Assembly: GCA_036505355.1 (NCBI GenBank)
Contig: DASXTP010000105.1
Location: forward strand, 2,613 to 66,612
Direction: 5' to 3'
Origin: Candidatus Eiseniibacteriota bacterium
GTDB lineage: Bacteria > Eisenbacteria > RBG-16-71-46
DNA: 64,000 nt
The notes under the pieces are model-generated. The model had not been told where the DNA came from, ran no database searches, and saw only the letters and a program-made list of their open reading frames with translations. Within the stretch, counting starts at the first letter, position 1. Every line of letters begins with the position of its first letter. A program made the position numbers and the translations under genes. Shown one piece after another: positions 872 through 46,003 of the stretch.

Positions 872-1432
872 TCAGGCACGCAAGAACGGCAGTCCCGTGC
901 ATGTGATGCAGCCACGGAGCTGGCGCTGCGATCGGCGGCAGGCCTCCAGCGCCTCGATCAGGTCGAGCGCGAGCGCATAGCGATCGTCGGGGCTGCCGTT
1001 GGCGAGCTGCTTCTTGGTGAGGGTCCAGACCTGCTCGTCGGGGTTGAGTTCCGGTGCATAGGCCGGGAAGGACTCGAGGCGGAGTCGCGGCAGGCGCCGG
1101 CACAGGGCGTGGGCCACCGGGCGGCGATGAAGCCGCAGGCGGTCCCAGAGCACGATCACCGGGCCACGGAGATGGCGCAGCAAGTGGGAGAGGAAGCCGC
1201 AGACCTCGATCTGGCGGAGGTTGTGATGGTGCCACTGGTAGTAGAGGCCGAGTCGCTGACGGATCGGGCTGACCGAGAGGCCGGAGATGACCGAGATGCG
1301 GTCGTGGCGATCCCAGTGGCGCAGGAGCGGCGTCTGGCCGCGCGGCGCCCAGGTGCGGAGCACGGTGGGCGCCAGCATGAAGCCCGATTCGTCTACGAAG
1401 ACGAGGTGGGCCCCCAGCCGAAGGGCGTTTTT
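872..1432 (-). pseudogene. IS630-family transposase, C-terminal (DDE) fragment only
   Basis: LVFVDESGF and FPAYAPELNPDEQVW are IS630/Tc1-mariner DDE signatures. The N-terminal HTH half is missing. The frame is closed by TAA at an A7 run (1428-1434). Confidence 0.7.
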
Positions 1433-1783: not shown

Positions 1784-2260
1784 TCAGGGCTGAGGAGGGC
1801 CCGCCACCGTGAGCGTCCGCAAATAGTCCACCACATTCAGGATCTGCCGCTCATTGAGCGTGTGCCCCCACGGGGGCATCCCGGTGGAGAGCCCGACCGC
1901 GCCACCACCGGAGCGGATCGCGGCCAGCAGATCGGCATCGGAGTGCCTCGCCTGGAAGCTCGAATCGGCCAGCGACCGGGGCCGCGGGTCAAGGTTGTAG
2001 GCATTGAAGCCGTCGCCCTTCCCGGCCTCGCCGTGGCAGTTCAGACAGTAGTGGCGATAGAGCGACCGACCTTCGCGGGCGTTGTATCCGAGTTCAGGGA
2101 TCGGCAAGATCGACGCGGAGTAGATCGCGCCAGCACTGTCGGCCGTCGTTGACTCGGCCGCCGTCGGCGCCCGCGTGGTACCGGTGCCACGACAGCCACC
2201 GCCGGCCCACGCCAACACCGCAGCCATCACCACCCCCGACGCGCACAGGCCGCGCCTCAT
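1784..2260 (-). CDS. monoheme c-type cytochrome (class I), secreted/lipoprotein-like
   Basis: Signal-like N-terminus MRRGLCASGVVMAAVLAWAGGGC. Single CLNCH heme motif and a later Met-containing region. ATGA start/stop overlap with the upstream octaheme cytochrome gene. Confidence 0.7.
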   Translation of the reverse strand: MRRGLCASGVVMAAVLAWAGGGCRGTGTTRAPTAAESTTADSAGAIYSASILPIPELGYNAREGRSLYRHYCLNCHGEAGKGDGFNAYNLDPRPRSLADSSFQARHSDADLLAAIRSGGGAVGLSTGMPPWGHTLNERQILNVVDYLRTLTVAGPPQP

Positions 2261-4314
2261 CGCCGCTTTTCTCCCCACCGTGCAGCCGGCTTGGCGGACG
2301 TAGCCGCGCCGTGCCCCACCGTTAGGGGCGGGATCGACGCCACGTACGCAGTCAGCGCACGGGCATCGGCGTCGTCGAGTCCGTAGTCGGGCTCGCGTGC
2401 GTCGGCCCGCCAGCGCTGCGGGGCCTTCAACCAGGAATAGATCCAGCCCGTCTTCAGCCGTTGGCCGGCCCCATCGAGGACAGGGCCATAGAAGCCCCCC
2501 CTGCCGCCGATCATGTGGCAGGCCTGACAGCCGTAACGCTCGTGGAAGAGTTTCCTCCCCCGCTCGACCTCCTCGGCTGCCGATGCGGCCGGGAGGATCT
2601 CTCCGGGGATGCTGTCGTTGCGCAACACGTTTTCGACGAAGCTGGCGATGAACGTCCGCTGGTCGTCGGGCATCTGAAGCTGGATCATTCGTTCTTCGAG
2701 GATCGGCCTGACCGTCGTCGGTAGCTTGAGGTAGCCGGCGAGCCAGCTCTCGCGCACCTTGCTCCCCTCGGCCGTGAGCGGCGCAGTGGAGATGTCGCCG
2801 CCTACTCCGCCGATCTGGTGACACGACATGCACCGGTACTGGCGCACCAGCTCCCCGAAGTGACCCGGAGGGGTATACGAAGTCTCGTGCACCGGCACCT
2901 GGTAGGCCACAGGGACCGGCACGCGCCCGATGGAGAGGAGCGCCGTCGTCAGCGCGTCCGTCTCGTGCTCGGTGAAGCCGAAACGAGGCATCTTCAGCCC
3001 GTCGCGGAACGAGCGTGGGTTGGTGATCTTGGCCGCGAGCCAGTCGGGCAGCCTGCGAGGTAGGTCGTCTCGCCGACCGAAATCGAGCCGGCCGACCGGT
3101 TTGTCCCCGATCCCAGTCAGCTCCGGACCAATCGCCGCTCCCTGACTGTGGCCGCCGATCTGGTGGCAGCCGTTGCAGCCCGCGCGGCGGAAGATGGCCT
3201 CACCTGCCTGCACCACGCGGTCGGCGGAGCGAATGCCCGGCGCGGGCGCCGGTGCCGACGCATCCGTGAATTCCTGAATCATGTAGTCGGCGAGGTCGGC
3301 CACGTCTGACCCACCGAAGTGATACCGCGGCATCTTCGTGTCGGGATAGAAGCGCTGCGGATCGGCGAGGAAGGCGACGAGCCAGCGGCGGGACACCTTG
3401 GACCCGACCCCTGATAACTCCGGCGCGCTCCCATTCCCCCGACCTTCGACGGTGTGGCACGAGATGCACCGCGAGGTCGAGAACAGAAGCTTGCCATGGT
3501 CCGCATTGCCCGACGCGACCACGGCGGTCGATTCGGCGTCGAGATCAACGCGCGGCGGGCGGCTCCACAGGAATGCCACCACCGAATCGATCTCGGCGGC
3601 GGTGAGCAGGAAATCAGGCATCCATGTCGAGGGTCGCAGGGACCTGGGCGACCGGATCCACGCTGCGAGCCACGCCGGATTGGTCTTCTGCGACAGCCCG
3701 GCGAGGTCGGGCGCTTCGCTCTTCCAGCCCTCGTGGCCCGCGACCTTGTGGCAGCCGAAGCAGCCCACCCGCGCCATGAGCCCGCGCCCCTCCGATAGGA
3801 GTGAGGCTTCGGGCACGGTATCGCCAGGATGACAGCGGCCACACGCTGCTTCGGTGTAGCGCACCGGGAGGATCGGCGAACTCCAGTCGGGTACGCGGCC
3901 GTGCGCCTCGGCCACGGTGGTCGCGCGCCCTTGCCCCAGATGACAGGCGACGCATCCGAACCGGTCGAGATCCCCGGGCGTGTGCGGCGTGCGCGGGTGC
4001 TGGCGGAACGGCTCGGGGGCCCCGGCCATGCGTGGCTCCTCGACGCCGAGGTGGCAGCTGACGCAGCGGTCGACATGATTGTCGAGCGCGGGCAGCCAAA
4101 TCTGGCGCACGCCCACCCCGCGCGTCTGGGCCTGCTTCAACTCCTTGAGCGAGGCCGCAGAGTGTAGCAGCCGCTGCCGATACTCATTCTGGTAGCGACG
4201 GTACTCGCGGAAGTAGTCCTTGATCGGTGAGATCGCCAGCACAAGGAGGAAGGTCACGCTGGAGACACCGAACCAGAACCACAGCCGGTCCGACGATGGC
4301 CCGGGCGAGTTCAC
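2257..4314 (-). CDS. membrane-anchored octaheme c-type cytochrome (cytochrome c subunit of the bc complex)
   Basis: GTG start preceded by GGAGGA and overlapping the subunit IV stop (GTGA). N-terminal TM helix (LWFWFGVSSVTFLLVLAI). Eight CxxCH motifs: CVSCH, CVACH, CGRCH, CFGCH, CISCH, CNGCH, CMSCH, CQACH. The last four lie in GxxLFxxxxCxxCH class-I-like modules. Confidence 0.75.
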   Translation of the reverse strand: MNSPGPSSDRLWFWFGVSSVTFLLVLAISPIKDYFREYRRYQNEYRQRLLHSAASLKELKQAQTRGVGVRQIWLPALDNHVDRCVSCHLGVEEPRMAGAPEPFRQHPRTPHTPGDLDRFGCVACHLGQGRATTVAEAHGRVPDWSSPILPVRYTEAACGRCHPGDTVPEASLLSEGRGLMARVGCFGCHKVAGHEGWKSEAPDLAGLSQKTNPAWLAAWIRSPRSLRPSTWMPDFLLTAAEIDSVVAFLWSRPPRVDLDAESTAVVASGNADHGKLLFSTSRCISCHTVEGRGNGSAPELSGVGSKVSRRWLVAFLADPQRFYPDTKMPRYHFGGSDVADLADYMIQEFTDASAPAPAPGIRSADRVVQAGEAIFRRAGCNGCHQIGGHSQGAAIGPELTGIGDKPVGRLDFGRRDDLPRRLPDWLAAKITNPRSFRDGLKMPRFGFTEHETDALTTALLSIGRVPVPVAYQVPVHETSYTPPGHFGELVRQYRCMSCHQIGGVGGDISTAPLTAEGSKVRESWLAGYLKLPTTVRPILEERMIQLQMPDDQRTFIASFVENVLRNDSIPGEILPAASAAEEVERGRKLFHERYGCQACHMIGGRGGFYGPVLDGAGQRLKTGWIYSWLKAPQRWRADAREPDYGLDDADARALTAYVASIPPLTVGHGAATSAKPAARWGEKRR

Positions 4315-5011
4315 AGGTGGACTCCTCCCTGCCACGGCCAGATCCACCTCCACCCGGGACCGCGGAAGAAGGTGCCGATCAGGGTGAGAGTGACCGCCAC
4401 GGTGACGAACCATGTCATGATCCAGTCGCTGATCGTCACGCGGACGAGCCGTCGCCTCCACCATGGGGGACAGGGCGGCAGCGAGGGCAGCAACATCGAC
4501 GAAAAGAGCAAGACCGTCGGCACGAGCACCGCCCATACGCGCCAGGCCACGAGGAAGGCCACGATCGCCGCGGCCACGGTGGTCAGCCACGCCAGCCGCC
4601 GTCGCGAGGGAGCCTCGAGGAAACCCCGGTCCTCGAGATTCGTTCGGAAGTAAGGGATCACCACCATCGCGACCACCACCATCCCCGGGATCAGCACGCC
4701 GGCGACGACCGGCGGGAAGTAGTGGAGCAACTCCTGAAGTCCGAGGAAGTACCAGGGCGCCTTGGCGGGGTTGGGCGTATTGGTCGGGTCGGCGATACCC
4801 TCGAGCGGAGAATCGAAGAAGAGCGACAGCAGCGCCATCGCGATCACGCAGACCTGGATCAGGATGACCTCGCGCAGCAGCAGATGCGGCGCCGTCATCA
4901 CGGTTTCGTCCTGGTCGAAGAGGACGCGGGCGGCGGTCTCGGGGCGGAGGATTGCCAGCCGTTTCGGCGTCGCCGTGGCGTCGCTGCTCGGCTCCAGCCG
5001 GTACTCGGTCA
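4311..5011 (-). CDS. petD: cytochrome b6-f complex subunit IV-like (cytochrome b C-terminal domain)
   Basis: PWYFLGLQELL motif and 3 TM helices. Separate gene directly downstream of the cytochrome b6 N-terminal domain gene (ATGA overlap), i.e. a split cytochrome b as in b6f-type complexes. Confidence 0.8.
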
Positions 5012-5755
5012 TGCTTCCTCCCTGCGAAGGGGAGCCGTGCGACACGACCCGGCGAGGCCGCCGTCCTTGCGCACCCGCCAGAGATGGAGCCCGACCAGGA
5101 ACACCAGCGCCAGCGGCAGGATGACGCAGTGAAGCACGTAGAAGCGGAGGAGGGCATTTTCGCCGACGATGTTGCCGCCCAGCAGCAGATAACGGAACTG
5201 CGGCCCGATGACCGGCATCGCCTTCACCATGTTCGTGCCGACCGAGACCGCCCAGAAGGCGAGCTGGTCCCACGGTAGGAGATAGCCGGTGTAGCTCAAG
5301 AGCAGCGTCAGCAGCAAGAGGGCGACGCCGATTACCCAGTTGAACTCGCGCGGTGGGCGGTAGGCCTTGTGATAGAAGACGCGCAGCATGTGCAGGAAGA
5401 CGACGATCACCATCGCGTGCGCGGGCCAGCGGTGCAGGTTGCGGAGGAACATGCCGTTGCTCACCGTGAACTGCAGCTCTTTCATATCGTGGTAGGCCTG
5501 TGGCACCGAGGGGTGGTAGTAGAGCATCAGCAGGAGGCCGGTGGCGGTGAGGATCGCGAACAGGATCAGGCCAACGGCCCCGAGGTAGTACGTGCTCGAG
5601 CCTTCGAGGCTGCGCCGCCGCACCTTGGCCGAGTGCAGGTGCAGGGTGAGACTTTCCATCACCACCATCACGCGGTTGCGGTTCGTGGCCCGGATACCGT
5701 GGCGGACCACGGAGCGCCACACACGGCTCTCGGTGATCGACTCCGGTAGCTTCAT
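5009..5755 (-). CDS. petB: cytochrome b6 (cytochrome b N-terminal domain)
   Basis: Four-helix bundle with conserved His pairs ([19 protein letters not shown]) and the WDQLAFW motif typical of cytochrome b/b6. Confidence 0.85.
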
Positions 5756-5764
5756 CTCGTCCTC

Positions 5765-6244
5765 TCAGAACCGGTCGGTGGTGCCCGCCGGAACCTCTAC
5801 CGCCGTGTCCACGATCAGCTCTCCCTTTTCGGAGAGGCTCATCTGCAACCAGCGGAGGGGGCGCGGCGCGGGTCCCGCGACGACGTCGCCGGCGAGCGTG
5901 AACTGGCTGCCGTGGCAGGGACAGGCGATGATGTTCCGGTCGGGCTGGAAGCGCGTGATGCATCCGAGGTGGGTGCACACGGCCGACAGCGCCCGGAATC
6001 CTTCCGCGATTCGGATCACGTAGGCGCGCTGCTCCACGTTGGTCACCACCGATCCAACCTCGATCGCCTCTGGCGGCCCGGCGGAGAACGCAGTGGGCGG
6101 CTCAAACAGCACGCGCGGCCGGAGGAAGTCGACCAGCACCACGCCTGCACCACCGGCCGCCACGGCACAGGCAGTCAGCCCGGCGGCAACGCAGAAATCG
6201 CGGCGTGTGATTGGCGGTACGTTGGCGACGTCGGCGTCAGACAT
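5765..6244 (-). CDS. petC: Rieske [2Fe-2S] iron-sulfur protein with Tat signal
   Basis: Twin-arginine motif ITRRDFCVAAG. Rieske boxes CTHLGC and CPCHGS. Confidence 0.85.
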   Translation of the reverse strand: MSDADVANVPPITRRDFCVAAGLTACAVAAGGAGVVLVDFLRPRVLFEPPTAFSAGPPEAIEVGSVVTNVEQRAYVIRIAEGFRALSAVCTHLGCITRFQPDRNIIACPCHGSQFTLAGDVVAGPAPRPLRWLQMSLSEKGELIVDTAVEVPAGTTDRF

Positions 6245-8111
6245 GGGCCGGCTCCAGCAGCCGGAACTGCTCCATGGTGATGGTCCCCGCTGGGCAGCGA
6301 TCGGCACAAAGTCCACATCGGATGCAGACCGTCTCGTCTTTGATCAACGCAGTGCCCGAGCCACCTTGCTTGGCGAGCAGCGCCGCAGCGGTCTCCCCGT
6401 GTTCCGTGCGCACCAGATCCCGCAGCGCCGGATCGGCCGCGAGCTCCGACAGCGGCAGGAAGCTGATGCAATCCTCCGGACACACGTCGGCGCAGCCGCC
6501 GCACAGGATGCACTCGGTGCCCTGCTCCGCATCTTCGTGAAACACGGTGTTGACCCAGCAGTGGAAGCAGCGCGAGGCCTCGCGTTGCGCGTCCGCCTCC
6601 GAGAAACATTGCTCGATTTCAGCGATGCCGACCCGCCGCTCGATCGGCAGGGCCGGTGGACGCTGGCGAGGCACACCCTCGTAATCCAGCACGCGCCGGT
6701 ATCCGGGCAACGGTTCGATGAGCACTTCCTCAGGCGGCAGCGGGAGTGCAGAACCGCGTAGATAGGTGTGGATCGAAGCGGCGGCCTTCTTGCCGTCGGC
6801 GACGGCCTCGATCGCGATGCGTGGTCCGAACGCGGCGTCGCCCCCAGCGTAGATGCCCGGAGCGCTGGTAGCGAGCGTCGTCGGATCCACCTGAAGCGTA
6901 CTGCGCGGCGTCACCGCCACGCCGTCCTCCGGCTGCAGGAACGACAGATCGCAGGCCTGACCGATGGCGAGCACGATCGTGTCCGCCGCGATCGCCAGCT
7001 CGGTGCCGGGTACGAACGTGGGATTGAAGCGGCGCTGGGCGTCGAAGACAGCAGAGCACTCGATGGTCTCGAGACCGGTCACGGAGCCCGCCTCGCCGAG
7101 AATGCGTTGCGGGCCCCGCCCCGGGTGGATCACGATGCCCTCCCGCTGCGCCTCGCGGATCTCCTCGCGGTCGGCCGGCATGGCCTCGAGCGACTCGAGG
7201 CACACGATGTGAACTTCCTTGGCGCCAAAGCGGATCGCGGAGCGCGCGACGTCGAACGCCGTCACGATGTTGAGGCCCGGATGGATGACCTCCTCCCGCG
7301 CCGGAGCCCGCAAGGCGGAACGGGCCACGTCCACCGCGACGTTCCCGCCGCCGACGACCAGCACGCGCCGGCCGAGCTCGACCCGGTAGCCCATGTTGAC
7401 GTTCAGCAGGAAATCCACGCCCTTGAGGACCCCGTCTAGATCGGCGCCGGGAATCTCGAGATCGCGGCTCCGCTGCGCGCCAGGGGCGAGAAAGACGGAC
7501 CGGAAGCCCTGGCGGCGCAGGTCCGACAGCAAGAAATCACGGCCGAGGCGGGCCCCGACCTTGAGTTCGACGCCGAGGTTGAGGATCGCGTTGATCTCGA
7601 GCTTGATCAGCTCGCGCGGCAGACGATATTCGGGGATCCCAAGCCGTAGCATCCCTCCCGGCACCGGCTGAGCTTCGAAGATGGTGACCGGGTAGCCGAG
7701 AAGCGCCAGGTCGTGCGCGGCCGCAAGCCCCGCCGGGCCTGCGCCGATGATCGCCACGCGGTCCTCCGGGTAGCGCCGCAGACGATCACCGTAGATCTCC
7801 TTCAGCAGATCCACGTCCATCATGCTCTCCACGCCGAAGCGCTCGGTGACGAAACGCTTGAGCGCCCGGATGGCAATCGGCTCGTCGAGCGCCCCCCGCC
7901 GGCACGCCGGCTCGCAGGGCGCGGCGCAGATGCGACCACAGATGGACGCGAGCGGATTCGGCCGCCGCGCCACGGCGTAGGCCTCGCGGTACTTCCCCTC
8001 CGCGATCAACGCAACGTAACGCCCGGCCTCCGTGCCGACGGGACAGGCCTTGAAGCAGGGGAAGTTGCTCTCCAGCCACCCCCGGTCGACGAGGCGATCC
8101 GAATCGGACAC
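6237..8111 (-). CDS. NAD(P)H-dependent FAD oxidoreductase of the glutamate-synthase small-subunit (GltD) family fused to 2x[4Fe-4S] ferredoxin domains
   Basis: N-terminal Cys cluster (CFKACP...CGRICAAPCEPAC). Two Rossmann GxGxxG motifs (IIGAGPAGLAAA, VVGGGNVAVD). C-terminal CILCGGCADVCP and CIRCGLCADRCP ferredoxin motifs. Confidence 0.75.
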   Translation of the reverse strand: MSDSDRLVDRGWLESNFPCFKACPVGTEAGRYVALIAEGKYREAYAVARRPNPLASICGRICAAPCEPACRRGALDEPIAIRALKRFVTERFGVESMMDVDLLKEIYGDRLRRYPEDRVAIIGAGPAGLAAAHDLALLGYPVTIFEAQPVPGGMLRLGIPEYRLPRELIKLEINAILNLGVELKVGARLGRDFLLSDLRRQGFRSVFLAPGAQRSRDLEIPGADLDGVLKGVDFLLNVNMGYRVELGRRVLVVGGGNVAVDVARSALRAPAREEVIHPGLNIVTAFDVARSAIRFGAKEVHIVCLESLEAMPADREEIREAQREGIVIHPGRGPQRILGEAGSVTGLETIECSAVFDAQRRFNPTFVPGTELAIAADTIVLAIGQACDLSFLQPEDGVAVTPRSTLQVDPTTLATSAPGIYAGGDAAFGPRIAIEAVADGKKAAASIHTYLRGSALPLPPEEVLIEPLPGYRRVLDYEGVPRQRPPALPIERRVGIAEIEQCFSEADAQREASRCFHCWVNTVFHEDAEQGTECILCGGCADVCPEDCISFLPLSELAADPALRDLVRTEHGETAAALLAKQGGSGTALIKDETVCIRCGLCADRCPAGTITMEQFRLLEPAHV

Positions 8112-8118
8112 CGGATGC

Positions 8119-8709
8119 CTACTTCTTCATCGCGAAGTCGGCCGCTGTCGCCCCCGCGATGGTGACGGTCTTGCCGACCTCGGCTTTGAACCTCGGGTGC
8201 CAGACCTTCACGGTGTAGGCGCCGTCGGGGAGGCCCTTGATGGCATAGGCGCCGGTCTTGTCGGTGACGGCGAACCAGGGGGTCGGAAGCACGACGACGA
8301 AGCCTTCCATCTCGGCGTGCACGTGGCACAGAAGTGTGGCGTTGCATCGCGTCTTGAACGTGTAGCTACGAATCTGCCCCTGCGGCCAGCTCCCCAGGTT
8401 GAACTGCTCGCAACACTTGTCGGGCGAGAAGACGTTGTGGAGGACCTGGTCGCCATTGAGGAAGTCGACCGTGGTCCCCATCAGCACGGGTAGGACGTGG
8501 GGCGTGAACACCAGGTTCTTCTGATTCATCTTGGCGTGAGTCGTCGGCGCCGGGAACTTTTTCCCGGCGATCGCGTCGATATAGACGACCGCGTCGGCGT
8601 TGTTCTTCATGCCGGCCACCGTGACGACCCCTTTGAGCTCCCCTGCCGCCGCGGCCCAAGCCACCACGAACGTCAACACGGCACATCCCATGCCGGACAA
8701 GAGTTTCAT
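8119..8709 (-). CDS. secreted blue copper protein (cupredoxin, type-1 Cu site) with carboxypeptidase-regulatory-like C-terminal segment
   Basis: Signal peptide MKLLSGMGCAVLTFVVAWAAAAG. Putative Cu ligands H (LHNVFS, as in plastocyanin PHNIVF) and C-x2-H-x2-M (LLCHVHAEM, amicyanin-like spacing). C-terminal TGAYAIKGLPDGAYTVKVWHP. Confidence 0.6.
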   Translation of the reverse strand: MKLLSGMGCAVLTFVVAWAAAAGELKGVVTVAGMKNNADAVVYIDAIAGKKFPAPTTHAKMNQKNLVFTPHVLPVLMGTTVDFLNGDQVLHNVFSPDKCCEQFNLGSWPQGQIRSYTFKTRCNATLLCHVHAEMEGFVVVLPTPWFAVTDKTGAYAIKGLPDGAYTVKVWHPRFKAEVGKTVTIAGATAADFAMKK

Positions 8710-8744: not shown

Positions 8745-10067
8745 TCAGAATCCGATGATGACGCCGAGCGTGCCTCCCTCATTCGTGAACTTGCCGCCCG
8801 GCTCCTTCACCCAGGTGCCGGCCAAGAACGACTTGACGTTGGCGCGGGCCAGGCCGTTGACGGTGAGCGATACCTGCTCGGTCTTCTCGTCGGCGATCTT
8901 GAGCGACTCCCACCTCCCGGCCGGAATCAGCCAGGGAAGCGCCACCCAGGACAGTTCCGCGAATTGGTTCTTGATCTTGACGTCGGTGATCGTCGGATCC
9001 GCCACGAAAAGACGGTCGTCCTTCCGGTCCGTGTATCCGGCGCGCGCCATCAGGTCGAGGTAATTCACGGCCATGTCGCCCCCGGCCATTCGAAACGGAT
9101 CGCGGGCGTTGGGGTCCAGGGGATCTCCCCCTTCGAGGATGCTCTTGCCCTTGTAGACGAACCCGGAGAGCGTGAGGGAGGTCTCGCTCCACGGCTTGGG
9201 GTTGGTCGGCAGCGCCGCTTCTGCGCCACCGCTGGGAACTCCGTCGAACGGCAGCCCGCCGAGCTTGTAGGCCAGCCGACCGTACACGTCCTTCGAATTG
9301 TCGCCGATGCTTCCCGATCCCTCCACCACACCGGCGTTGTAGAGCACGCGGTGCTCGAGCATTCCGTAGGCCTCGAGACCTTGCTGGAAGCCATCGGGAG
9401 CCCAGGGGTTGTCGCCGGCGGACTCCGTCAAGACCAGCGGTTCCTGGTCCAGGATGGAGCGGTGCGAGGACAGCAGCATGATTCCTGGCTCGAAGGAGCC
9501 GACCTTGAACTGCAGGGCGGGCGAATCGAGCGGGCGCACCAGCAGATTGACGCGCTCCATCTCGGTCGCGATCTCGCTCCCGTCGCGGGCGAACACAACC
9601 GATCCCCAGAAGGAGAAATGCTCGTCGAGGGTCCCGGCGCCCAGAATTTCGAGCTCGCCGCCCATACCACCAAATGTGGTGGTCTTGGTCGCGTGATCGT
9701 AGTCGACCGCGCTCGTGTAGAGGACAGCGACCGGCGGCATCCCGGGGATCTCTCCCGGCCAGACCGCATGCGGCCAGAGCTTCTTGTAGCCCTCAGCGCC
9801 GATCGAGACCGGAGGGATCTTCGTCATTGCCGCATCGTTGCCCCCAGGAAAGCGGTAGCCATTCTGTCGGAATGCCTCGCCGAAGGGAGTCAGCGCGGGG
9901 ATCGCGACGTGGCAAGTCTGACAGCTCGTCTGGTACTTCCGCGCAAACGCCGGAATCGTGTAGGCATTCCGGGGCGCGATCAGCGCCGCCGAATACAGCA
10001 CGATCAGCGTCAGCCCGAACACGGTACGTACGTCGAACACCATCGGCTTGGGTCCTTCTCGTAGCAT
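8745..10067 (-). CDS. cyc2: Cyc2-like fused monoheme cytochrome c / outer-membrane beta-barrel porin
   Basis: Signal peptide then a single CQTCH heme motif about 45 aa from the N-terminus (AFARKYQTSCQTCHV). The remaining ~380 aa have alternating beta-strand character and end in the OMP-type terminal ...GVIIGF. Size (440 aa) and architecture match Cyc2 of iron oxidizers. Confidence 0.6.
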   Translation of the reverse strand: MLREGPKPMVFDVRTVFGLTLIVLYSAALIAPRNAYTIPAFARKYQTSCQTCHVAIPALTPFGEAFRQNGYRFPGGNDAAMTKIPPVSIGAEGYKKLWPHAVWPGEIPGMPPVAVLYTSAVDYDHATKTTTFGGMGGELEILGAGTLDEHFSFWGSVVFARDGSEIATEMERVNLLVRPLDSPALQFKVGSFEPGIMLLSSHRSILDQEPLVLTESAGDNPWAPDGFQQGLEAYGMLEHRVLYNAGVVEGSGSIGDNSKDVYGRLAYKLGGLPFDGVPSGGAEAALPTNPKPWSETSLTLSGFVYKGKSILEGGDPLDPNARDPFRMAGGDMAVNYLDLMARAGYTDRKDDRLFVADPTITDVKIKNQFAELSWVALPWLIPAGRWESLKIADEKTEQVSLTVNGLARANVKSFLAGTWVKEPGGKFTNEGGTLGVIIGF

Positions 10068-10196: not shown

Positions 10197-10868
10197 TCAG
10201 AGCAGGTGGGTGCGAAGCGCCAGCGAGACTGCCTCGAGCTTGCTGTGGACGTCGAGCTTGCGGAGGATGTTCTGAACGTGGTTCCGTGTCGTCGTAACGC
10301 TGATGAACAGTGAATCGGCGATGCCCTGAGTGCTCGTTCCTTCGGCCAGAAGAGCGAGGACCTGGACTTCGCGCGGGGTCAGCACCGGCGACGGGGGCAA
10401 CGACGGCTCGTTGGCCGCGGGAGCCGACACCGGTGGGGCGTGTTGCTGGGTCAGGATTCGGCGGATCAGCTGGTCGACATCGCGGCGACGATCGACCCGC
10501 TCCAGGAAGTGGATCAGCGTGTACTGCCGCGCGCGAGGGCCTGGCATCACGACGATCGAGAAGCTGGCCGGGACGGTCTCGCCCGACTCGTTGCGGACGT
10601 CGAGCTCGAAGTGGCGTACCGATTCGTGTCGTTCGACCATGAACGTCAGGGCGCACTGGCGGTCGCAGAAGCGGTTACCGAAGACATCTCGCCCACAGAG
10701 GATCTCATGGCAGGACTTGCCGAGGACCTGGGAGGCGGGATAGCCGAGCATCTCCTGGGCACCCTTGTTCCAGATGGCGATGCGCCCCTTCTCGTCGGTC
10801 GCGAAGGCGGCCGCGCCGGCGCGGCCGATCACGTCCAGTGGGTCCACGATCAACGCATCCTTTCGCCT
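10197..10868 (-). CDS. LuxR-family transcriptional regulator with N-terminal PAS sensor domain (start uncertain)
   Basis: C-terminal LuxR HTH (LTPREVQVLALLAEGTSTQGIADSLFISVTTTRNHVQNILRKL). PAS-like segment (IAIWNKGAQEMLGYPASQVLGKSCHEIL). Upstream part of the long ORF looks non-coding. Confidence 0.65.
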   Translation of the reverse strand, partial: RRKDALIVDPLDVIGRAGAAAFATDEKGRIAIWNKGAQEMLGYPASQVLGKSCHEILCGRDVFGNRFCDRQCALTFMVERHESVRHFELDVRNESGETVPASFSIVVMPGPRARQYTLIHFLERVDRRRDVDQLIRRILTQQHAPPVSAPAANEPSLPPSPVLTPREVQVLALLAEGTSTQGIADSLFISVTTTRNHVQNILRKLDVHSKLEAVSLALRTHLL

Positions 10869-16179: not shown

Positions 16180-17343
16180 TTCGGAATTACCGGACATAGG
16201 GCGTTGAAAACGTGAGACCTGCCTTGTATCCCTTGGTTGCTGTTTGCCAACGGCACCTAGGGACAAGGAGGTCTCACGATGAGGCTTCGACTCAGACGGC
16301 CGACTCGGTTGTGGTTGCGGCGATTGGACCGCAAGACTCGCGACGCCGAAGTTCGGGTGCGCTGTCGAGTGTTGTTGAAGGTGGCGGCCGGGATGACCCG
16401 CCACGCTGCCGCGCGGGCGATCGGCTGTGCGCCCGCGACCGCGTGGCGCATCGTAGCGCGTTTTGAGACCCACGGGGAAGCCGCGCTGATGGACGGTCGG
16501 AGTGAGAACGGACGACCCAAGGTCGACGACGATATACGCGCCGGGATCTGCAAGATCCTGGAGCAGAGCCCGCCGGACTTCGGCTTTCCGCGTCCGACCT
16601 GGACGCTGGAGCTGTTGACGCGTGTGATCCAGCAGGTGCTGCAGGTGGCGGTGTCGGTCGGTCACCTGTGGAAGATCCTGCGGCGGTTGCGCGTGCGCTG
16701 GGGACGTCCGCGTCCAGTCGTGCGCTGCCCGTGGAACGCCGCGCACCGCGCGGCCCGGATCGCGGTGCTGCGCCGCCTGGTGGCGCAGCGGCAGCCGGGC
16801 GAGGTGGTGCTCTACGTGGACGAAGCCGATCTGCACCTCAATCCCAAGATCGGTCCCGACTGGATGCTGCTCGGCACGCAGCGCGAGGTGGTGACCCCCG
16901 GCCAGAACGAGAAGCGCCACCTGGCGGGCGCCTACGATCCCGCCCATCAGCGGCTGGTCTACGTCACCGGCGATCGCAAGGCGAGCTGGCTGTTCCTGAA
17001 CCTGCTGCGCGCCCTGCTGGACGCCTGCCGCTGGGCACGCCGCATCCATCTGATCCTCGACAACTACATCATCCACAAGAGCCGCCTGACCCTGGCGTGG
17101 CTCGGCCGTCACGGCGCCAAGTTGCGGCTGCACTTCCTGCCGCCCTACTGCCCGAACGAAAACCGGATCGAACGCCTGTGGCTCGATCCGCATGCCAACG
17201 TGACCCGTAATCACCGGTGCCGCACCATCGATGAGCTACTGGGCGCGGTTCACCACTACCTCGCCCGACGGTTTGATCTCGCTCAAGTCATTGCCTATGC
17301 GGCCTGACCACAGCCTTCCCGAATCAGGCGAAGGCATTTAGCA
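16158..17343 (+). mobile_element. intact IS630-family insertion sequence (about 1.19 kb)
   Basis: 25-bp terminal inverted repeats TGCTAA(G/A)TGCCTTCGCCTGATTCGG at 16158-16182 and, reverse-complemented, at 17319-17343, flanking a single transposase gene. Confidence 0.8.
16279..17307 (+). CDS. IS630-family DDE transposase
   Basis: N-terminal HTH, then VLYVDEADLHL ... LPPYCPNENRIERLW (DDE with IS630-type spacing). 342 aa with good SD (GGAGG) upstream. Confidence 0.85.
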   Translation: MRLRLRRPTRLWLRRLDRKTRDAEVRVRCRVLLKVAAGMTRHAAARAIGCAPATAWRIVARFETHGEAALMDGRSENGRPKVDDDIRAGICKILEQSPPDFGFPRPTWTLELLTRVIQQVLQVAVSVGHLWKILRRLRVRWGRPRPVVRCPWNAAHRAARIAVLRRLVAQRQPGEVVLYVDEADLHLNPKIGPDWMLLGTQREVVTPGQNEKRHLAGAYDPAHQRLVYVTGDRKASWLFLNLLRALLDACRWARRIHLILDNYIIHKSRLTLAWLGRHGAKLRLHFLPPYCPNENRIERLWLDPHANVTRNHRCRTIDELLGAVHHYLARRFDLAQVIAYAA

Positions 17344-20437: not shown

Positions 20438-21973
20438 CTAGGAAGCGCCCAGGACGGAACGCACCACGCCCCGGCAGTCCTCGCTGGCCTCGGCGAGCGC
20501 GGACTCGAGGCGGCGCAAATCCATCTCCACCCCTTGCTTATCGGCGCCGTCGGGTATGGACTTCAGGTTGATTTCGACGTTGAGGAGGGCTCCCTCGGCA
20601 GCCGCCCGGGCCAAAAGCCCCGCCACCCCCGCATCGGTGATCGCGTTGACGTTGCCCCACTTGGCAACCGCCGCCGCCACCTCCACCAACCGCAGGCAGG
20701 CCGCGGCGGTTCGCAACGGAACGCGTGCCGCCTCGAGGTTGGCCTGCGCCAATGCTCGGGCGCGGGCGTCCGCCTCGGACGCCGTGGCATGGGCGAGGCG
20801 CCCCGCCTTCAACACCGCCTCGAAGGCTTCGCCATCGGCCCGCGCCAGCCCCATCAGCTCGCCCCGCAAGGCTTCGGCGTCGCGCCTGAGATCCCGCAGC
20901 GTCGCCTCCTGCTCGGCGTACTTCTTCTTGCCGGTCGAGAGGTTCGCCACCATGGTGACCAGGCAGCTCGCCAGCGCGCCGGCGAACGCCGCCGCCGTTC
21001 CGCCACCCGGCGTGGGCGTCGGGCCGGCGAGTTGATCGAAGAAGCTGGCAATCGAAGTCGCCTCGGCGAGCGGAGGGCGCTTGAGCCTCCGCTCGAGCAC
21101 CTGGTCGCGCCGGAAGCTCTCGAGCTGCAGCGCGTGCTCCGCCGCATCGAGGAGACAGTACTCGGGCACCAGTCCCACGACCTCGCAGCCGGCGATCGCC
21201 GCCCCACGGCGCGCCGCCTCGTCGCGCACCAGGGCCAGCACGCGATGGATCGGCGTCGCCTCGGTGTTGACCAGGTTCATGCTCACCTGCGCCCGACGCC
21301 CGCCCTCGATCGAGAAGCCGAGCGCCCGCACGTGCTTGAGCCCGCCGTTCTGCTCGCGGATCGCCCGCGCGATCGCCTGCGCGATGCGCACGTCGCCGGT
21401 GTTGAGGTTGGCGTTGAACGCCACCAGAAAACGCCGCGCCCCAACCGCCGTCGCCCCGGCCTTCGGGTGAATCTTCGCCGGGCCGAAATCGGGCGCGCGC
21501 GCGGGGTCTTTGCCGATCCGCTCGCGCAGGCCTTCGAATTCGCCGCGGCGCACGTCGGCCAGGCTCACGCGGTCGGGACGCGAGGCGGCGGCCTCGTAGA
21601 GGAACACCGGGATCTCGAGCTCCTCGCCGATGCGCAGACCCAGGGCGCGGGCCAGGTCGGCGCACTCGTCCAACGTGAGCCCCTCGATCGGCACGAACGG
21701 CACCACGTCGGTCGCCCCCATGCGCGGATGCTCGCCCCGGTGATGGTTCAAGTCGATCAGCTCGGCCGCGCGGCGCACCGCGCGAAAGGCGGCCTCCATC
21801 ACCGCTTCCGGCTCGCCGGCGAAGGTCACGACCGAGCGATGGTGATCGGGGTCCATCTCGCTGTCGAGGAACGTGGCGCCGGGGACCGAGGTGATGGCGC
21901 GGATCAGGTCGTCCACCACCTCGCGGCGGCGGCCTTCCGAGAAGTTGGGCACGCACTCGACGAGTCGGGTCAT
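20438..21973 (-). CDS. ftcD: glutamate formimidoyltransferase / formimidoyltetrahydrofolate cyclodeaminase (bifunctional)
   Basis: N-terminus MTRLVECVPNFSEGRR is the formiminotransferase signature. The C-terminal ~190 aa are the helical cyclodeaminase domain. Confidence 0.85.
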   Translation of the reverse strand: MTRLVECVPNFSEGRRREVVDDLIRAITSVPGATFLDSEMDPDHHRSVVTFAGEPEAVMEAAFRAVRRAAELIDLNHHRGEHPRMGATDVVPFVPIEGLTLDECADLARALGLRIGEELEIPVFLYEAAASRPDRVSLADVRRGEFEGLRERIGKDPARAPDFGPAKIHPKAGATAVGARRFLVAFNANLNTGDVRIAQAIARAIREQNGGLKHVRALGFSIEGGRRAQVSMNLVNTEATPIHRVLALVRDEAARRGAAIAGCEVVGLVPEYCLLDAAEHALQLESFRRDQVLERRLKRPPLAEATSIASFFDQLAGPTPTPGGGTAAAFAGALASCLVTMVANLSTGKKKYAEQEATLRDLRRDAEALRGELMGLARADGEAFEAVLKAGRLAHATASEADARARALAQANLEAARVPLRTAAACLRLVEVAAAVAKWGNVNAITDAGVAGLLARAAAEGALLNVEINLKSIPDGADKQGVEMDLRRLESALAEASEDCRGVVRSVLGAS

Positions 21974-22022
21974 GACCGGGGCCTGGTTCGAGCACGACGC
22001 GCGTCGGGGATCGCGGCCCCGC

Positions 22023-23330
22023 TCACGGCCACACCCGCCGCTCCATCGCCGGCAGCGCCAGGTCGGCGCCGCGCACGAACACGCAGTCCGGGCGCACCGC
22101 CGGCATCCAGTAGGGCAGCTCCTCGAGGGTCTCGCATTCCCAGGTCACCGCATCCCCCGATGCCCCGGGGTTCAAGTGCCCCACTTGATCTTGCAGGCCG
22201 AGCGCCTTGGCGGCATTCCAGGTGATGGCGAGCAGTAGCTCTTCGGGCCGGAATCCGCACAGTCGCGCTGCCAGCGCCGCGCACTCGAGCAGCGATTGGG
22301 CGGGGGCAGTGCCGGGGTTGAAGTCGGTGGCGATCGCGACCCGCGCCCCACTCTTGCGCAGCATGCGGGCCTTGGGCAGGCGCTGGCCCAACGTGAGCGC
22401 GGCGGCCGGCAGCAGCACCCCCACCGTGCCCGACGCCGCCAGGGCCGCCCAATCTTCCTCGGTCGCCTTCTCGAGGTGGTCGGCCGAAAGGGCCCCGAGC
22501 TCGGCCGCGAGCCGCGCCCCGCCGCTGTGCTCCAGCTGATCGGCGTGCACCCGCAGCCCCATGCCGTGCTCGCGCGCCCGCGTGAGCACGCGCCGGCATT
22601 CCTCGACCGTGAACGCCACCGGATCGCAAAACACGTCCACCGCGGTGGCGAGCTCACGGCTCACGATCTCCGGCATCAGATCGCACATCGCCTCGACGTA
22701 GTCGCCGCGACGCTCGTGGTACTCCTCGGGCAGCGCGTGCAGCAGCAGCGCCGTGCGCTGCACCCGCACCGGTACCCGCTGCACCGCCCCGCGCATCAAC
22801 CCAAGCAGGCGCAGCTCGTCCCGCGGCTTGAGCCCATAGCCGCTCTTGACCTCGACGGTGGTGCAGCCACTGGCGCGCCAGCGCTCGAGACGCGCGGCCA
22901 GCGACTTCTCGAGCGCCTCGTCGCGCTCGGTGGTGGTGGCGCGCACCGTCGTCCGAATGCCGCCGCCGCCGGCCGCGATCTTGGCGTAGCTCTCGCCGCC
23001 GAGCTTGCGCCGGAACTCCTGGGCCCGATGACCGGCGAAGATCATGTGGGTGTGGCAGTCCACCAGCCCCGGCGTGACGAGCCGCCCGTTGGCGTTGATC
23101 GGGCGCGCCTCGCCGTGGCGTCGCATCAGCTCGGCGCTGATTCCGACCTCGAGCACGCGGCCGTCCCGGAACACCACCGCCCCCTTCGGGTAGCGGATGA
23201 CGCCGCGGCCTTCCGGATCGGGGGTGACCACCTCGGAGGCGTTGTAGAGCAACAGATACGCCGCGCGCCCGGCGACGGTCCGCACCGAGGGATCGCGCGC
23301 CGGCCCGACCGTGGTCGACGGCTTTGCCAT
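22023..23330 (-). CDS. hutI: imidazolonepropionase
   Basis: Amidohydrolase fold with LVTPGLVDCHTHMIFAG and later HADQ/D motifs. Position in the hut operon. Confidence 0.9.
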   Translation of the reverse strand: MAKPSTTVGPARDPSVRTVAGRAAYLLLYNASEVVTPDPEGRGVIRYPKGAVVFRDGRVLEVGISAELMRRHGEARPINANGRLVTPGLVDCHTHMIFAGHRAQEFRRKLGGESYAKIAAGGGGIRTTVRATTTERDEALEKSLAARLERWRASGCTTVEVKSGYGLKPRDELRLLGLMRGAVQRVPVRVQRTALLLHALPEEYHERRGDYVEAMCDLMPEIVSRELATAVDVFCDPVAFTVEECRRVLTRAREHGMGLRVHADQLEHSGGARLAAELGALSADHLEKATEEDWAALAASGTVGVLLPAAALTLGQRLPKARMLRKSGARVAIATDFNPGTAPAQSLLECAALAARLCGFRPEELLLAITWNAAKALGLQDQVGHLNPGASGDAVTWECETLEELPYWMPAVRPDCVFVRGADLALPAMERRVWP

Positions 23331-23331
23331 G

Positions 23332-25017
23332 TCAGTCGGTGACTCCCGGCAGCTTCATCCCGGTTCGGCGCGCGTGCTCGATGGCTTCGGGGTAGCCGGC
23401 GTCGGCGTGCCGCATCACCCCGGTTCCCGGGTCGTTCGTCAACACCCTCGTCAGCCGCTCGTCGGCCGCCGCGCTGCCGTCACAGACCACCACCATGCCG
23501 GCATGGATCGAGTTGCCGATGCCTACCCCACCGCCATGATGCACGCTCACCCACGAGGCGCCCGAGGCGGTGTTGAGCAGGGCGTTCAAGATCGGCCAGT
23601 CGGCCACCGCGTCGCTGCCGTCCCGCATCCCCTCGGTTTCACGAAACGGCGACGCCACCGAGCCGGCGTCGAGATGGTCCCGCCCGATCACGATCGGGGC
23701 GGCGAGTCGACCTTCGCGCACCATGCGGTTGAAGCGCATCCCGAGCCGCGCCCGCTCGCCGTGGCCCAACCAGCAGATCCGCGCCGGCAGTCCTTGGAAG
23801 CGCACCTGCTTCTGGGCCAGCGGGATCCAGCGGTGGAGCCGGGCATCGTGTGGAAACTCCTCGAGCGCCGCCTGGTCGGTGGCCAGGATGTCGGCGGGCT
23901 CGCCCGAAAGCGCCGCCCAACGGAACGGTCCCTTGCCGACGCAGAACAGCGGCCGCACGTATTCGGGCACGAAGCCCGGATACGAGAACGCCTGATCGTG
24001 CGGCAGCCCGCCTTGCTCGGCCTCGCCCCGCAGGTTGTTGCCGTAGTCGAACAGCACGGTGCCCCGCGCCTTCCAGGTCAACAGCGCCCGCACCTGCTGC
24101 GCCATCGAGGCGCGGGCCCGGCGCACGTGCTCCTCGGGCTGTCGCGCGCGCAGCTCGGCCGCCTGCTCGAGCGAGAGCCCGGCCGGGACGTAGCCGTTGA
24201 GCGGATCGTGAGCCGACGTCTGGTCGGTGGCCACGTCGGGCTTGAGGCCGCGCTCGAGCAGCAGGGCGTGCACTTCGGCCGCGTTACCCACCAGGCCCAC
24301 CGACAACGGCCGCCTCGACTCCGCGGCTCCCCGCGCCCACGCCAGCGCCTCGTCCAGCGAACGGGTGAGCCGGTCGCAGTAGCCGGTCTCGACGCGGCGT
24401 CGCGCCCGCGCTTCGTCCACCTCGACCGCCAGACACACGCCCCCGTTCATGGTGATCGCGAGCGGCTGCGCCCCCCCCATGCCACCCAGCCCGGCGGTGA
24501 GCACCACGCGACCAGCCAGTGAACCGCCGAAATGGCGCGCCGCGCACTCGGCGAAGGTCTCGAAGGTGCCCTGGACGATGCCCTGAGAGCCGATGTAGAT
24601 CCAGGAGCCGGCGGTCATCTGACCGAACATGATGAGGCCCTTGCCCTCCAGCTCCCAGAAGTGCTCCCAGGTCGCCCAGCGCGGCACCAGCAGCGAGTTG
24701 GCGATCAGGACGCGGGGCGCGTGGGGGTGGGTGCGGAACACTCCCACCGCCTTGCCCGACTGCACCAGCAACGTCTCGTCGTTCTCGAGTGCGCGGAGTG
24801 CTACGACCAGGCCATCGAAGGCCGCCCACGAGCGGGCCGCCTTGCCGGTGCCACCGTAGACCACGAGATCGTCGGGGCGCTCGGCGACCTCGGGATCGAG
24901 GTTGTTCATCAACATGCGGAGCGCGGCTTCCTGGGTCCACCCCTTGCACGACTGCGCCGTCCCGCGCGGCGCCCGCACGGTCCGTGCCTGGGAACGGCTC
25001 GTGATCACGGCGCTCAT
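23332..25017 (-). CDS. hutU: urocanate hydratase
   Basis: [41 protein letters not shown] matches the HutU N-terminus. ATGA overlap with hutH. Confidence 0.9.
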
Positions 25018-41337: not shown

Positions 41338-41441
41338 ACGAGCTCCTCCGGACACGCTACCAGCCCCTGTCCCAGTTGGATGAAACATACTACACCGGGC
41401 CGGGCCCCGAGGCTCCAAGGTTTTTTCCCGAGCCGAGTTGG

Positions 41442-45818: not shown

Positions 45819-45835
45819 CGGTGAGGAGGGGCTCA

Positions 45836-46003
45836 GAACTTCTCGGCCTCCTCGATCAGGAAGTTCGGGATGTCGTCGACGACCTTGTACCGCAGCCGGC
45901 ACCGATGGCAGGTGAAGGTGTTGGCTTCGGCGCTGTACTCCAGGTCGCCCTTGCAGGCCGGACACACCAGCAACGCGAGCAGGTCAGGACTCAGGGCCAT
46001 GGG
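45836..46003 (-). CDS. UPF0434/Trm112-like zinc-ribbon protein (YcaR family)
   Basis: MALSPDLLALLVCPACKGDLEY...FTCHRCRLRYKVVDDIPNFLIEEAEKF: CPxC...CxxC ribbon with the conserved DGIP-like motif. 55 aa. Confidence 0.7.

Follow-up and report, generated by a model that had tools for sequence, protein, structure and literature searches.

The window analyzed here is a stretch of 64,000 nucleotides (contig DASXTP010000105.1, assembly GCA_036505355.1, Candidatus Eiseniibacteriota), and it carries on the minus strand an operon of eight genes, the first of which encodes a protein of the Cyc2 type, a monohaem cytochrome c fused to an outer-membrane porin. The genes are separated by short gaps or joined through overlapping stop and start codons. 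On the basis of its motifs, its predicted fold and a profile alignment, the first protein is very probably a member of the Cyc2 family. Behind it lie genes for a periplasmic cupredoxin, a Rieske/cytochrome b complex with an NAD(P)-binding flavoprotein, and two c-type cytochromes. We propose, with somewhat better than even confidence, that this operon encodes one electron path across the cell envelope, which would lead from Fe(II) inward to quinone and NAD(P). What we provisionally consider new is the conserved modular operon rather than the Cyc2 protein itself.

The cyc2 gene and the features of its product were located as follows (coordinates in the window, strand, feature and basis).

8745–10067, minus: probable Cyc2-family fused monohaem cytochrome c/16-strand outer-membrane porin, 440 amino acids (aa); open reading frame, ribosome-binding site, motifs, AlphaFold2 (AF2) model, porin fold matches and hhalign
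9957–10067, minus: predicted signal peptide, residues 1–37, with probable cleavage before I38; sequence features by inspection, helix 13–30 and a linker at 31–37 of low predicted local distance difference test score (pLDDT), AxA-IPAFARKY junction in homologues
9933–9953, minus: PAFARKY, residues 39–45, the Cyc2-defining PxFAR[Q/K][T/Y] motif as defined in PMC8406198; P39, F41, R43 and Y45 at least 90% conserved in 118 homologues
9909–9923, minus: CQTCH, predicted haem c attachment motif, C49–H53, read from the sequence; C49, C52 and H53 invariant in 118 sequences
8748–9731, minus: predicted 16-strand beta-barrel, residues 113–440, with the C-terminal signal ...GVIIGF; AF2 model

The reading frame begins with ATG at 10067 and ends at 8745, and a ribosome-binding site, GAGGAGGGG, lies 2 nt upstream of the start codon. 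The JGI gene call takes the second Met as the start (432 aa), and from that Met onward the protein has an exact match on the JGI metagenome contig 3300036864 / Ga0376053_0000089. The GC content at third codon positions was 0.83, which is usual for the genes of this ~68% GC sequence. Judged by inspection, the N-terminus is Sec-like, with basic residues followed by the hydrophobic segment VFGLTLIVLYSAALIA, by PRNAYT and then by IPAFARKY; the sequence after PRNAYT is IPAFARKYQTSCQTCHVAIPALTPFGEAF. In the homologues, AxA stands immediately ahead of IPAFARKY, where the window protein has AYT-IPAF. An earlier reading of this stretch, made without database searches (the sequence-only reading), had put the haem motif ~20 residues after the cleavage site; the distance is more probably about 11–12 residues, because the cleavage is placed by the AxA-IPAFARKY junction in homologues. 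The single CxxCH that it had pointed out was found as described, since the protein contains only two cysteines, C49 and C52, both within CQTCH. Three residues further downstream follows PAL (H53-V-A-I-P57-A-L59).

Among the 118 aligned homologues, exactly one CxxCH was present in 116. The residues P39, F41, R43, Y45, T47, S48, T51, P57 and L59 were conserved in at least 90% of the sequences, and the CxxCH with its flanking motif was the most conserved part of the protein. The window protein ends in GVIIGF. The C-terminal residue was F in 96 of the 118 homologues and F or Y in 105, which agrees with the outer-membrane beta-signal (...IIGF) recognized in the sequence-only reading. The invariance of C49, C52 and H53, the single CxxCH and the terminal aromatic residue thus form a pattern far beyond chance. 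The best-conserved candidate residues near the haem were Y45 (99%) and K44 (83%), both in FARKY.

The AF2 model of the protein (pLDDT 91.9; predicted template modelling score, pTM, 0.86) has a helix at residues 13–30, a linker of low confidence after the helix, and 16 long strands across residues 113–439. The sequence-only reading had seen an amphipathic beta pattern in this part and had named the absence of a transmembrane barrel, or best homologues among soluble periplasmic cytochromes, as results that would speak against it; structure prediction gave a 16-strand barrel, and the homologues were full-length fusions. The nearest solved structures were OprP and other 16-strand porins, both general and anion-selective. 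OprO and OprP are also the templates on which 16-strand Cyc2 porins have been modelled (PMC8406198). No family of Pfam or NCBIfam matched the protein. Its relatives numbered 1,067 in a 90%-clustered protein collection and 1,970 representatives at E ≤ 1e-3 in a 50% library, and nearly all of them were unnamed or "hypothetical" in both.

The Cyc2 family has been defined by a signal peptide, one CXXCH, a length of at least 365 residues and a 16-strand OprO/OprP-like porin (Keffer et al., 2021; PMC8406198). The motif AxPxFAR[Q/K][T/Y] just upstream of the haem site is unique to Cyc2, and PxL lies just downstream (PMC8406198). The window protein has a predicted signal peptide, a single CXXCH, PAFARKY, PAL, 440 aa and a predicted 16-strand barrel. 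Its residues 39–45 match the screening form PXFAR[Q/K][T/Y] exactly, with the spacing PAFARKY-QTS-CQTCH-VAI-PAL; the leading A of the longer consensus corresponds to T37 in the window protein and is A in most homologues. Compared with the characterized proteins (Cyc2 of A. ferrooxidans, Cyt572 of Leptospirillum and Cyc2PV-1 of Mariprofundus; PMC8406198), it is alike in the signal peptide, the single N-terminal CXXCH, PxFAR[Q/K][T/Y] and PxL, in the length of ~440 aa, the OprP/OprO-like 16-strand barrel and the C-terminal aromatic residue, and in a cytochrome part that is far more conserved than the porin part. It differs in that its motif reads FARKY-xTS-C instead of FARQT, and in that its source is probably an Eisenbacteria metagenome-assembled genome (MAG) and not a known iron oxidizer.

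The relationship was also examined by profile alignment. The comparison cluster comprised 30 sequences with AVPAFARQTG-x2-CxxCH, including Burkholderia, Ralstonia, Pandoraea, Cupriavidus, Rhodanobacteraceae and Dyella, and its genera have been named as Cyc2 carriers (PMC8406198; PMC10654088). The profile of 118 sequences aligned to this Burkholderia/Ralstonia/Rhodanobacter Cyc2-type cluster with an hhalign probability of 99.5% (E 3e-23) over 352 columns; columns 18–421 were matched to 13–434, and the alignment therefore spanned both the haem domain and the barrel. The identity between the window clade and the Burkholderiales cluster was 17% in this alignment. Compared with that cluster, sequences of the window clade carry a conserved stretch of ~30 extra residues behind the haem domain (residues ~76–109), in which P99 is invariant and W103 and P104 are nearly so. 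The motifs, the OprP-like model and the hhalign match together supported the Cyc2-like fusion proposed in the sequence-only reading. Cyc2 is already on record for Krumholzibacteria and Ignavibacteriales from surveys based on FeGenie, which also count Eisenbacteria, Zixibacteria and Omnitrophica among iron-cycling taxa (PMC7914226; PMC8478452). Given these reports in related phyla, the motifs and the fold, the protein is best seen as a further member of a known family, and we infer from this membership that it may oxidize iron.

A tblastn search of plasmids with Cyc2 gave N-terminal matches only, and for one Caballeronia sequence hhalign matched only the haem domain; the comparison cluster was built from the family of that sequence, and it took the alignment of this family to bring out the barrel. 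This homologue, annotated as "cytochrome C" in RefSeq and borne on plasmid pSBC1_3 (region 2924–5941), carries ALPAFARQTGLACVACH. The annotated coding sequence begins downstream of the signal peptide and the FARQT motif, and its start looks too late. The gene adjoins a gene for a high-potential iron-sulphur protein (HiPIP) and one for a c-type cytochrome, which suggests a compact Cyc2-HiPIP-cytochrome c module.

The remaining seven genes of the operon and the two features that flank it were assigned as follows.

8119–8709, minus: predicted periplasmic type-1-copper cupredoxin, 196 aa, with signal peptide, apparently nested in a CarboxypepD_reg beta-sandwich; Pfam CarboxypepD_reg, weak Copper-bind, ligands of orthologues
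6237–8111, minus: predicted cytoplasmic NAD(P)-binding flavoprotein with flavin adenine dinucleotide (FAD) and multiple [4Fe-4S] clusters, GltD-like, 624 aa, no signal peptide; Pfam Pyr_redox_2, Fer4_20, Fer4, NCBIfam PRK12771/PRK12814
5765–6244, minus: Rieske [2Fe-2S] subunit with an N-terminus of the twin-arginine translocation (TAT) type and CTHLGC...CPCHGS; Pfam Rieske, UCR_Fe-S_N, Kuste4569 match
5009–5755, minus: cytochrome b6-like four-helix cytochrome b, 248 aa; Pfam Cytochrome_B, E 9e-44
4311–5012, minus: subunit IV-like protein (C-terminal half of a split cytochrome b) with the Qo-site motif KAPWYFLG; translation, weak Pfam Cytochrom_B_C in the JGI call
2257–4314, minus: octahaem cytochrome c, predicted to be membrane-anchored, 685 aa, 8 CxxCH; motif count, Pfam Cytochrom_C and related families
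1784–2260, minus: small monohaem cytochrome c, 158 aa, CLNCH, last gene of the operon; Pfam Cytochrome_CBB3, Cytochrom_C
10197–10853, minus: PAS-LuxR (GerE) transcriptional regulator, directly upstream of the operon; Pfam PAS_9, GerE
872–1378, minus: truncated transposase beyond the end of the operon, 168 aa; DDE_3

The stop codon of the flavoprotein gene overlaps the start of the Rieske gene, and the subunit IV gene overlaps its neighbours at both its start and its stop. The PAS-LuxR protein is a candidate regulator of the operon; it was kept upstream in the loci of Eisenbacteria, Krumholzibacteriia and Acidobacteriota, and different regulators were found in other phyla. A scan for promoters and terminators gave nothing above chance.

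The assignment of the cupredoxin relied largely on its orthologues. The copper ligands H91, C128, H131 and M134, with the loop C-x2-H-x2-M, were invariant in 33 orthologues across phyla. Pfam Copper-bind was found in 30 of these 33 (best E 9e-8) and Cupredoxin_1 in 12; the window protein alone scored 19.9 bits against Copper-bind, just under the Pfam cut-off of 21.2. It aligns to the type-1-copper domains of 9cck and 5fc9, which have the C-x2-H-x2-M loop. No rusticyanin-specific family was among its Pfam or NCBIfam matches. The two ends of the CarboxypepD_reg (transthyretin-like) profile matched the N-terminal strand GELKGVVTV...DAVVY and the C-terminal residues 143–194, and the copper domain (~59–140) lies between them. 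The copper domain thus seems to be inserted within the CarboxypepD_reg sandwich, an architecture that would be unusual for an electron carrier.

The closest likeness of the membrane complex was to the Rieske/cytochrome b complexes of anammox bacteria. The best match of the Rieske subunit in PDB was Kuste4569 of Kuenenia stuttgartiensis (9rk4; E 6e-30, 107 bits, 103 residues); the next match had 64 bits, and 9rk3 (Kustd1480) had 60 bits. The anammox complexes comprise a b6-like cytochrome b, subunit IV, multihaem c cytochromes and a putative NAD(P) oxidoreductase, and the published proposal is that they form NAD(P)H through forward electron bifurcation (PMC12954380). Five parts of this type (Rieske, b6-like, subunit IV-like, multihaem c and the FAD/FeS NAD(P) reductase) were contiguous at 2257–8111 in the window. 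Compared with the complexes of Kuenenia (Kuste4569-4574 and Kustd1480-1485; Kartal 2013; Hauser 2025, PMC12954380), the Rieske protein was ~50% identical to Kuste4569, estimated by eye over the 103 aligned residues, and the two systems share the split b6 plus subunit IV, a multihaem c in place of cytochrome f/c1, and the cytoplasmic FAD/multi-FeS NAD(P) reductase. However, the window operon lacks an octahaem enzyme like hydroxylamine oxidoreductase (HAO), its reductase gene precedes the Rieske gene so that the order differs, and its hosts are not anammox bacteria. A cytochrome-porin and a cupredoxin stand ahead of the cluster in the window, which is not reported for the anammox clusters as described in PMC12954380. 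The operons of Nitrospina, Kuenenia and Methylomirabilis (Lücker 2013, PMC3578206) are also alike in having a b6f-like Rieske/b complex with an atypical octahaem c as the sole c subunit, whereas Cyc2, the cupredoxin and the NAD(P) reductase are not described there.

The residue His19 (RHG) of cytochrome b, a proxy for the extra haem b of the anammox models, was considered as a marker of the NAD(P) subunit and was rejected, as the two did not track each other. Operons of the Vicinamibacteria type had the NAD(P) subunit and lacked His19, and two operons without the subunit had His19. The LHxH pair was universal in the cytochromes b of the operons compared.

The arrangement was conserved well beyond the window. 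Species representatives were scanned with an alignment of 20 closer Cyc2 sequences, and the matches came from the window's own clade only, with no cultured iron oxidizer among them. At least 565 stretches encoded a Cyc2 relative. The closest matches listed (GTDB) were Candidatus Eisenbacteria MAGs with 89, 80 and 73% Cyc2 identity and a Krumholzibacteriia MAG with 67%; among the matches listed, identities were ~50–55% in Acidobacteriota and 33–42% in Bacteroidota, Ignavibacteriota, Calditrichaceae, Myxococcota, Vicinamibacteria and Omnitrophota.

The neighbours of cyc2 in the window were then compared by tblastn with the best 80 loci. A cupredoxin gene lay within 1.5 kb downstream of cyc2 on the same strand in 66 of the 75 loci that extended far enough. 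Where at least 4.5 kb was available downstream (57 loci), the cupredoxin was found in 51, Rieske plus cytochrome b in 44, and the NAD(P) flavoprotein as well in 32; the cytochrome b orthologues at these loci were 53–92% identical. The MAGs with the operon were labelled as Eisenbacteria, Krumholzibacteriia, Acidobacteriota/Vicinamibacteria, Bacteroidota, Ignavibacteriota, Calditrichaceae, Myxococcota and one Betaproteobacteria. Loci of Ignavibacteriota and Bacteroidota showed the identical eight-gene order, including the octahaem protein with 8 CxxCH and the small cytochrome c. Myxococcota loci kept the cupredoxin, Rieske, a fused cytochrome b and the octahaem protein (8 CxxCH), and the flavoprotein was absent.

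In other relatives, the Rieske/b complex was replaced. A locus with a 77%-identical Cyc2 (L003 / L087, 11361–20916) has in its place a set like alternative complex III (ACIII), made up of a c7-like cytochrome, a molybdopterin subunit, an FeS subunit and NrfD, and the homologous octahaem (8 CxxCH) and monohaem cytochromes c still follow. In several Myxococcota (L015 / L084, 11295–16714; L032, L037 and L086), a NapH-like CX3CP membrane protein and a COX2-cytochrome c take this position. The gene order there is cyc2, a 299-aa hypothetical protein, the cupredoxin, a 188-aa hypothetical protein, a 489-aa polytopic CX3CP protein (NapH/NosR-like), the COX2-cytochrome c fusion and a 303-aa hypothetical protein; the hypothetical proteins of this variant had no Pfam matches. 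Cyc2 and the cupredoxin form the invariant core, and their changing partner acts in every case at the level of quinone or an oxidase. Because the inner-membrane partner is swapped for non-homologous modules, it can be argued that Cyc2 and the cupredoxin are wired to the quinone or oxidase level, and we regard a functional coupling of Cyc2 to the cupredoxin and a quinone-level complex as likely. We found no description of an operon with Cyc2, a cupredoxin, Rieske/b6 and a GltD-like protein in the literature, of which our coverage was incomplete, so that its novelty is provisional.

Two MAG labels looked doubtful in view of the phylogeny of this gene. A MAG labelled Bacteroidota (L005) had a 70%-identical Cyc2 and 78–87%-identical neighbours and grouped with the Eisenbacteria loci, and one labelled "uncultured Enterobacteriaceae" (L034) had a 37%-identical Cyc2 copy. 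These may reflect mis-binning, mislabelling or recent transfer.

On the path that we propose, Cyc2 would be exported by Sec and carry one haem c at C49/C52/H53, and its remaining ~330 residues would form the 16-strand porin in the outer membrane. The haem would be reachable by small dissolved species and would exchange single electrons with extracellular redox species, most likely oxidizing Fe(II) by homology. Electrons would then pass to the co-encoded periplasmic cupredoxin and through the octahaem and monohaem c cytochromes to the b6f-like Rieske/cytochrome b complex, which would carry the cytoplasmic NAD(P)-binding FeS flavoprotein of the anammox type. The quinone pool, NAD(P)+ or both could in this way receive electrons from Fe(II). 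The presence of an NAD(P) reductase within the set suggests that NAD(P) can exchange low-potential electrons with the b haems. The Rieske/b form of the operon would be the "uphill" version and the COX2 form the "downhill" one.

A precedent exists in the chain of A. ferrooxidans (the rus operon cyc2-cyc1-cup-coxBACD-rus and the petI bc1 operon). The logic would be the same, in that Cyc2 passes electrons to a blue-copper carrier and this to an oxidase (downhill) or a Rieske/b complex (uphill); the path proposed for the window resembles the uphill branch from Cyc2 through rusticyanin to bc1, and the relatives of the operon include both a Rieske/b form and a COX2-containing form. In contrast to A. 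ferrooxidans, a single operon here encodes Cyc2, the cupredoxin and the Rieske/b complex. The cupredoxin domain has the short C-x2-H-x2-M loop and apparently sits within a CarboxypepD_reg sandwich, and in place of a bc1 feeding NDH-1 there is a b6f-like complex that has an octahaem c and an NAD(P) reductase of its own. The source labels of the relatives also differ, and suggest groundwater, fen, peat and lake habitats.

The direction of flow is less certain than the coupling, and we give net inward flow from Fe(II) close to an even chance or slightly less. The complex may bifurcate electrons from quinol with Cyc2 as the outlet, or Fe(II) uptake may be driven by the proton-motive force or by NAD(P)H confurcation. 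A more far-reaching version holds that the operon is a single trans-envelope machine in at least eight phylum-level lineages, in which the Cyc2 pore and the blue-copper carrier would serve as the high-potential arm of an anammox-type Rieske/cytochrome b complex, and bifurcation at the Qo site, or its reverse, would link the one-electron reactions of extracellular iron directly to NAD(P)+/NAD(P)H by way of the FeS flavoprotein. We think this version doubtful; if true, it would be the first such complex outside anammox bacteria and a previously unrecognized route to reducing power in iron oxidizers at neutral pH.

Several points weigh against the proposed path. Every step of the pathway, from haem attachment and localization to protein contacts, substrate and direction of electron flow, is drawn from sequence, fold and gene order, and gene adjacency is no proof of physical or electron-transfer contact. 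The sequence link to the family was drawn through the Burkholderiales-type cluster, whose genera are named as Cyc2 carriers. No conserved Met or second His that could act as distal haem ligand was found in the alignment of 118 sequences, in which H53 was the only conserved His. The best 80 related loci were all from uncultured MAGs, and heterotrophy or iron reduction is attributed to several of the lineages concerned (Ignavibacteriales). Elsewhere in the window lie genes for proteases, a type IX secretion component and the breakdown of histidine, and not markers of lithoautotrophy. Furthermore, a Rieske/b complex normally oxidizes quinol and its reversal would need the proton-motive force, and what has been proposed for the anammox complexes is bifurcation in the forward direction instead of uptake (PMC12954380).

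The last of these points leads to the first alternative, an outward flow, which we rate as rather unlikely. Quinol would be oxidized by the Rieske/b complex, and the high-potential electron would leave through the octahaem c, the cupredoxin and Cyc2 to an extracellular acceptor, for example Fe(III) in soluble or chelated form, Mn(III/IV) or humics; its low-potential counterpart would pass through the b haems, the FeS clusters and FAD to NAD(P)+. This would amount to a bifurcation of the anammox style with an extracellular sink replacing nitrite. It accords with the type of the complex and the forward bifurcation published for its anammox counterparts, and with quinol oxidation as the normal direction for both Rieske/b and ACIII, which are both found in this slot of the operon. 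The carriers also include known or suspected iron reducers and MAGs with both "oxidation" and "reduction" markers. However, all characterized proteins of the Cyc2 family are Fe(II) oxidases, with Cyc2PV-1 at about +208 mV (PMC8406198), and at neutral pH Fe(III) minerals make poor sinks for high-potential electrons and are too large for a small pore. Neither the absence of the NAD(P) subunit from the Myxococcota operons nor the COX2-type variant, which resembles an oxygen-directed downhill branch fed from outside, fits well with outward flow.

A substrate other than iron seems improbable. Cyc2 might act on Mn(II), as suggested for Manganitrophaceae, or on another small dissolved redox species; alternatively, the cupredoxin might serve as a general hub that links the oxidation of quinol with terminal oxidases or enzymes of denitrification, and Cyc2 would be no more than an auxiliary input. 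Common electron acceptors of cupredoxins are NirK, NosZ and oxidases. Cyc2 homologues have been proposed for Mn(II) oxidation, and the identity of only 17% to the Burkholderiales cluster and the clade's own insert of ~30 residues would leave room for another substrate. Nevertheless, genes specific to manganese or nitrogen oxides are missing from the operon, many of the source labels (such as groundwater, fen, peat and lake sediment) point to habitats of iron cycling, and the motif on the haem side is shared with proven iron oxidases. The general and anion-selective porins nearest in structure and the lack of a Pfam or NCBIfam family might suggest an ordinary porin for diffusion, or else a soluble cytochrome of the periplasm, in which the CxxCH or the beta pattern is coincidental. 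This reading is extremely improbable and was rejected, because the CxxCH and its flanks vary little or not at all across the 118 homologues, which come from many phyla, the model shows the barrel with very high confidence and the neighbourhood of redox proteins is conserved.

Cyc2 is the main metagenome marker for iron oxidation, and the fate of the electron after Cyc2 in neutrophiles and its route to NAD(P)H are still a matter of models. In this clade, a single operon ties Cyc2 to a specific carrier of the copper type and to a complex at the quinone level and thereby offers concrete, testable partners, with an inner partner that is interchangeable between Rieske/b with or without the NAD(P) reductase, an ACIII-like set and a NapH/COX2-like module. 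It also provides many non-anammox examples of Rieske/b complexes bearing an NAD(P) reductase, each with an identifiable periplasmic partner, which could help to settle the role of such complexes. The report of Cyc2 in MAGs of Ignavibacteriota, Bacteroidota, Acidobacteriota, Myxococcota and Eisenbacteria may mean a bidirectional or non-lithotrophic exchange and not classical iron lithotrophy.

Other regions of the window were also inspected. A homologue of the type IX secretion protein PorV adjoins a 1507-aa C25 (gingipain-like) peptidase with a C-terminal FlgD_ig-like domain (40390–45965, minus), and a 1026-aa subtilase with FG-GAP repeats is encoded at 54159–57239; together, these genes suggest a proteolytic lifestyle. 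Genes like those of histidine utilization occupy 20438–26543 on the minus strand, namely a formiminotransferase-cyclodeaminase (20438–21973), an amidohydrolase (22023–23330) and an aromatic amino acid lyase/HutH (25014–26543). DnaE (DNA polymerase III alpha, 1597 aa; 47240–52033, minus) contains an intein with a LAGLIDADG homing-endonuclease domain (Pfam Intein_splicing 755–1195, LAGLIDADG_3 982–1059). Two DDE_3 transposase genes bracket the operon region, the truncated one at 872–1378 (minus, 168 aa) and another at 16279–17307 (plus); a composite transposon around the operon was considered and rejected, as the two transposases are unrelated and no long repeats flank the region. The GC fraction dips to 0.64 at 8–10 kb, compared with 0.68–0.72 around it.

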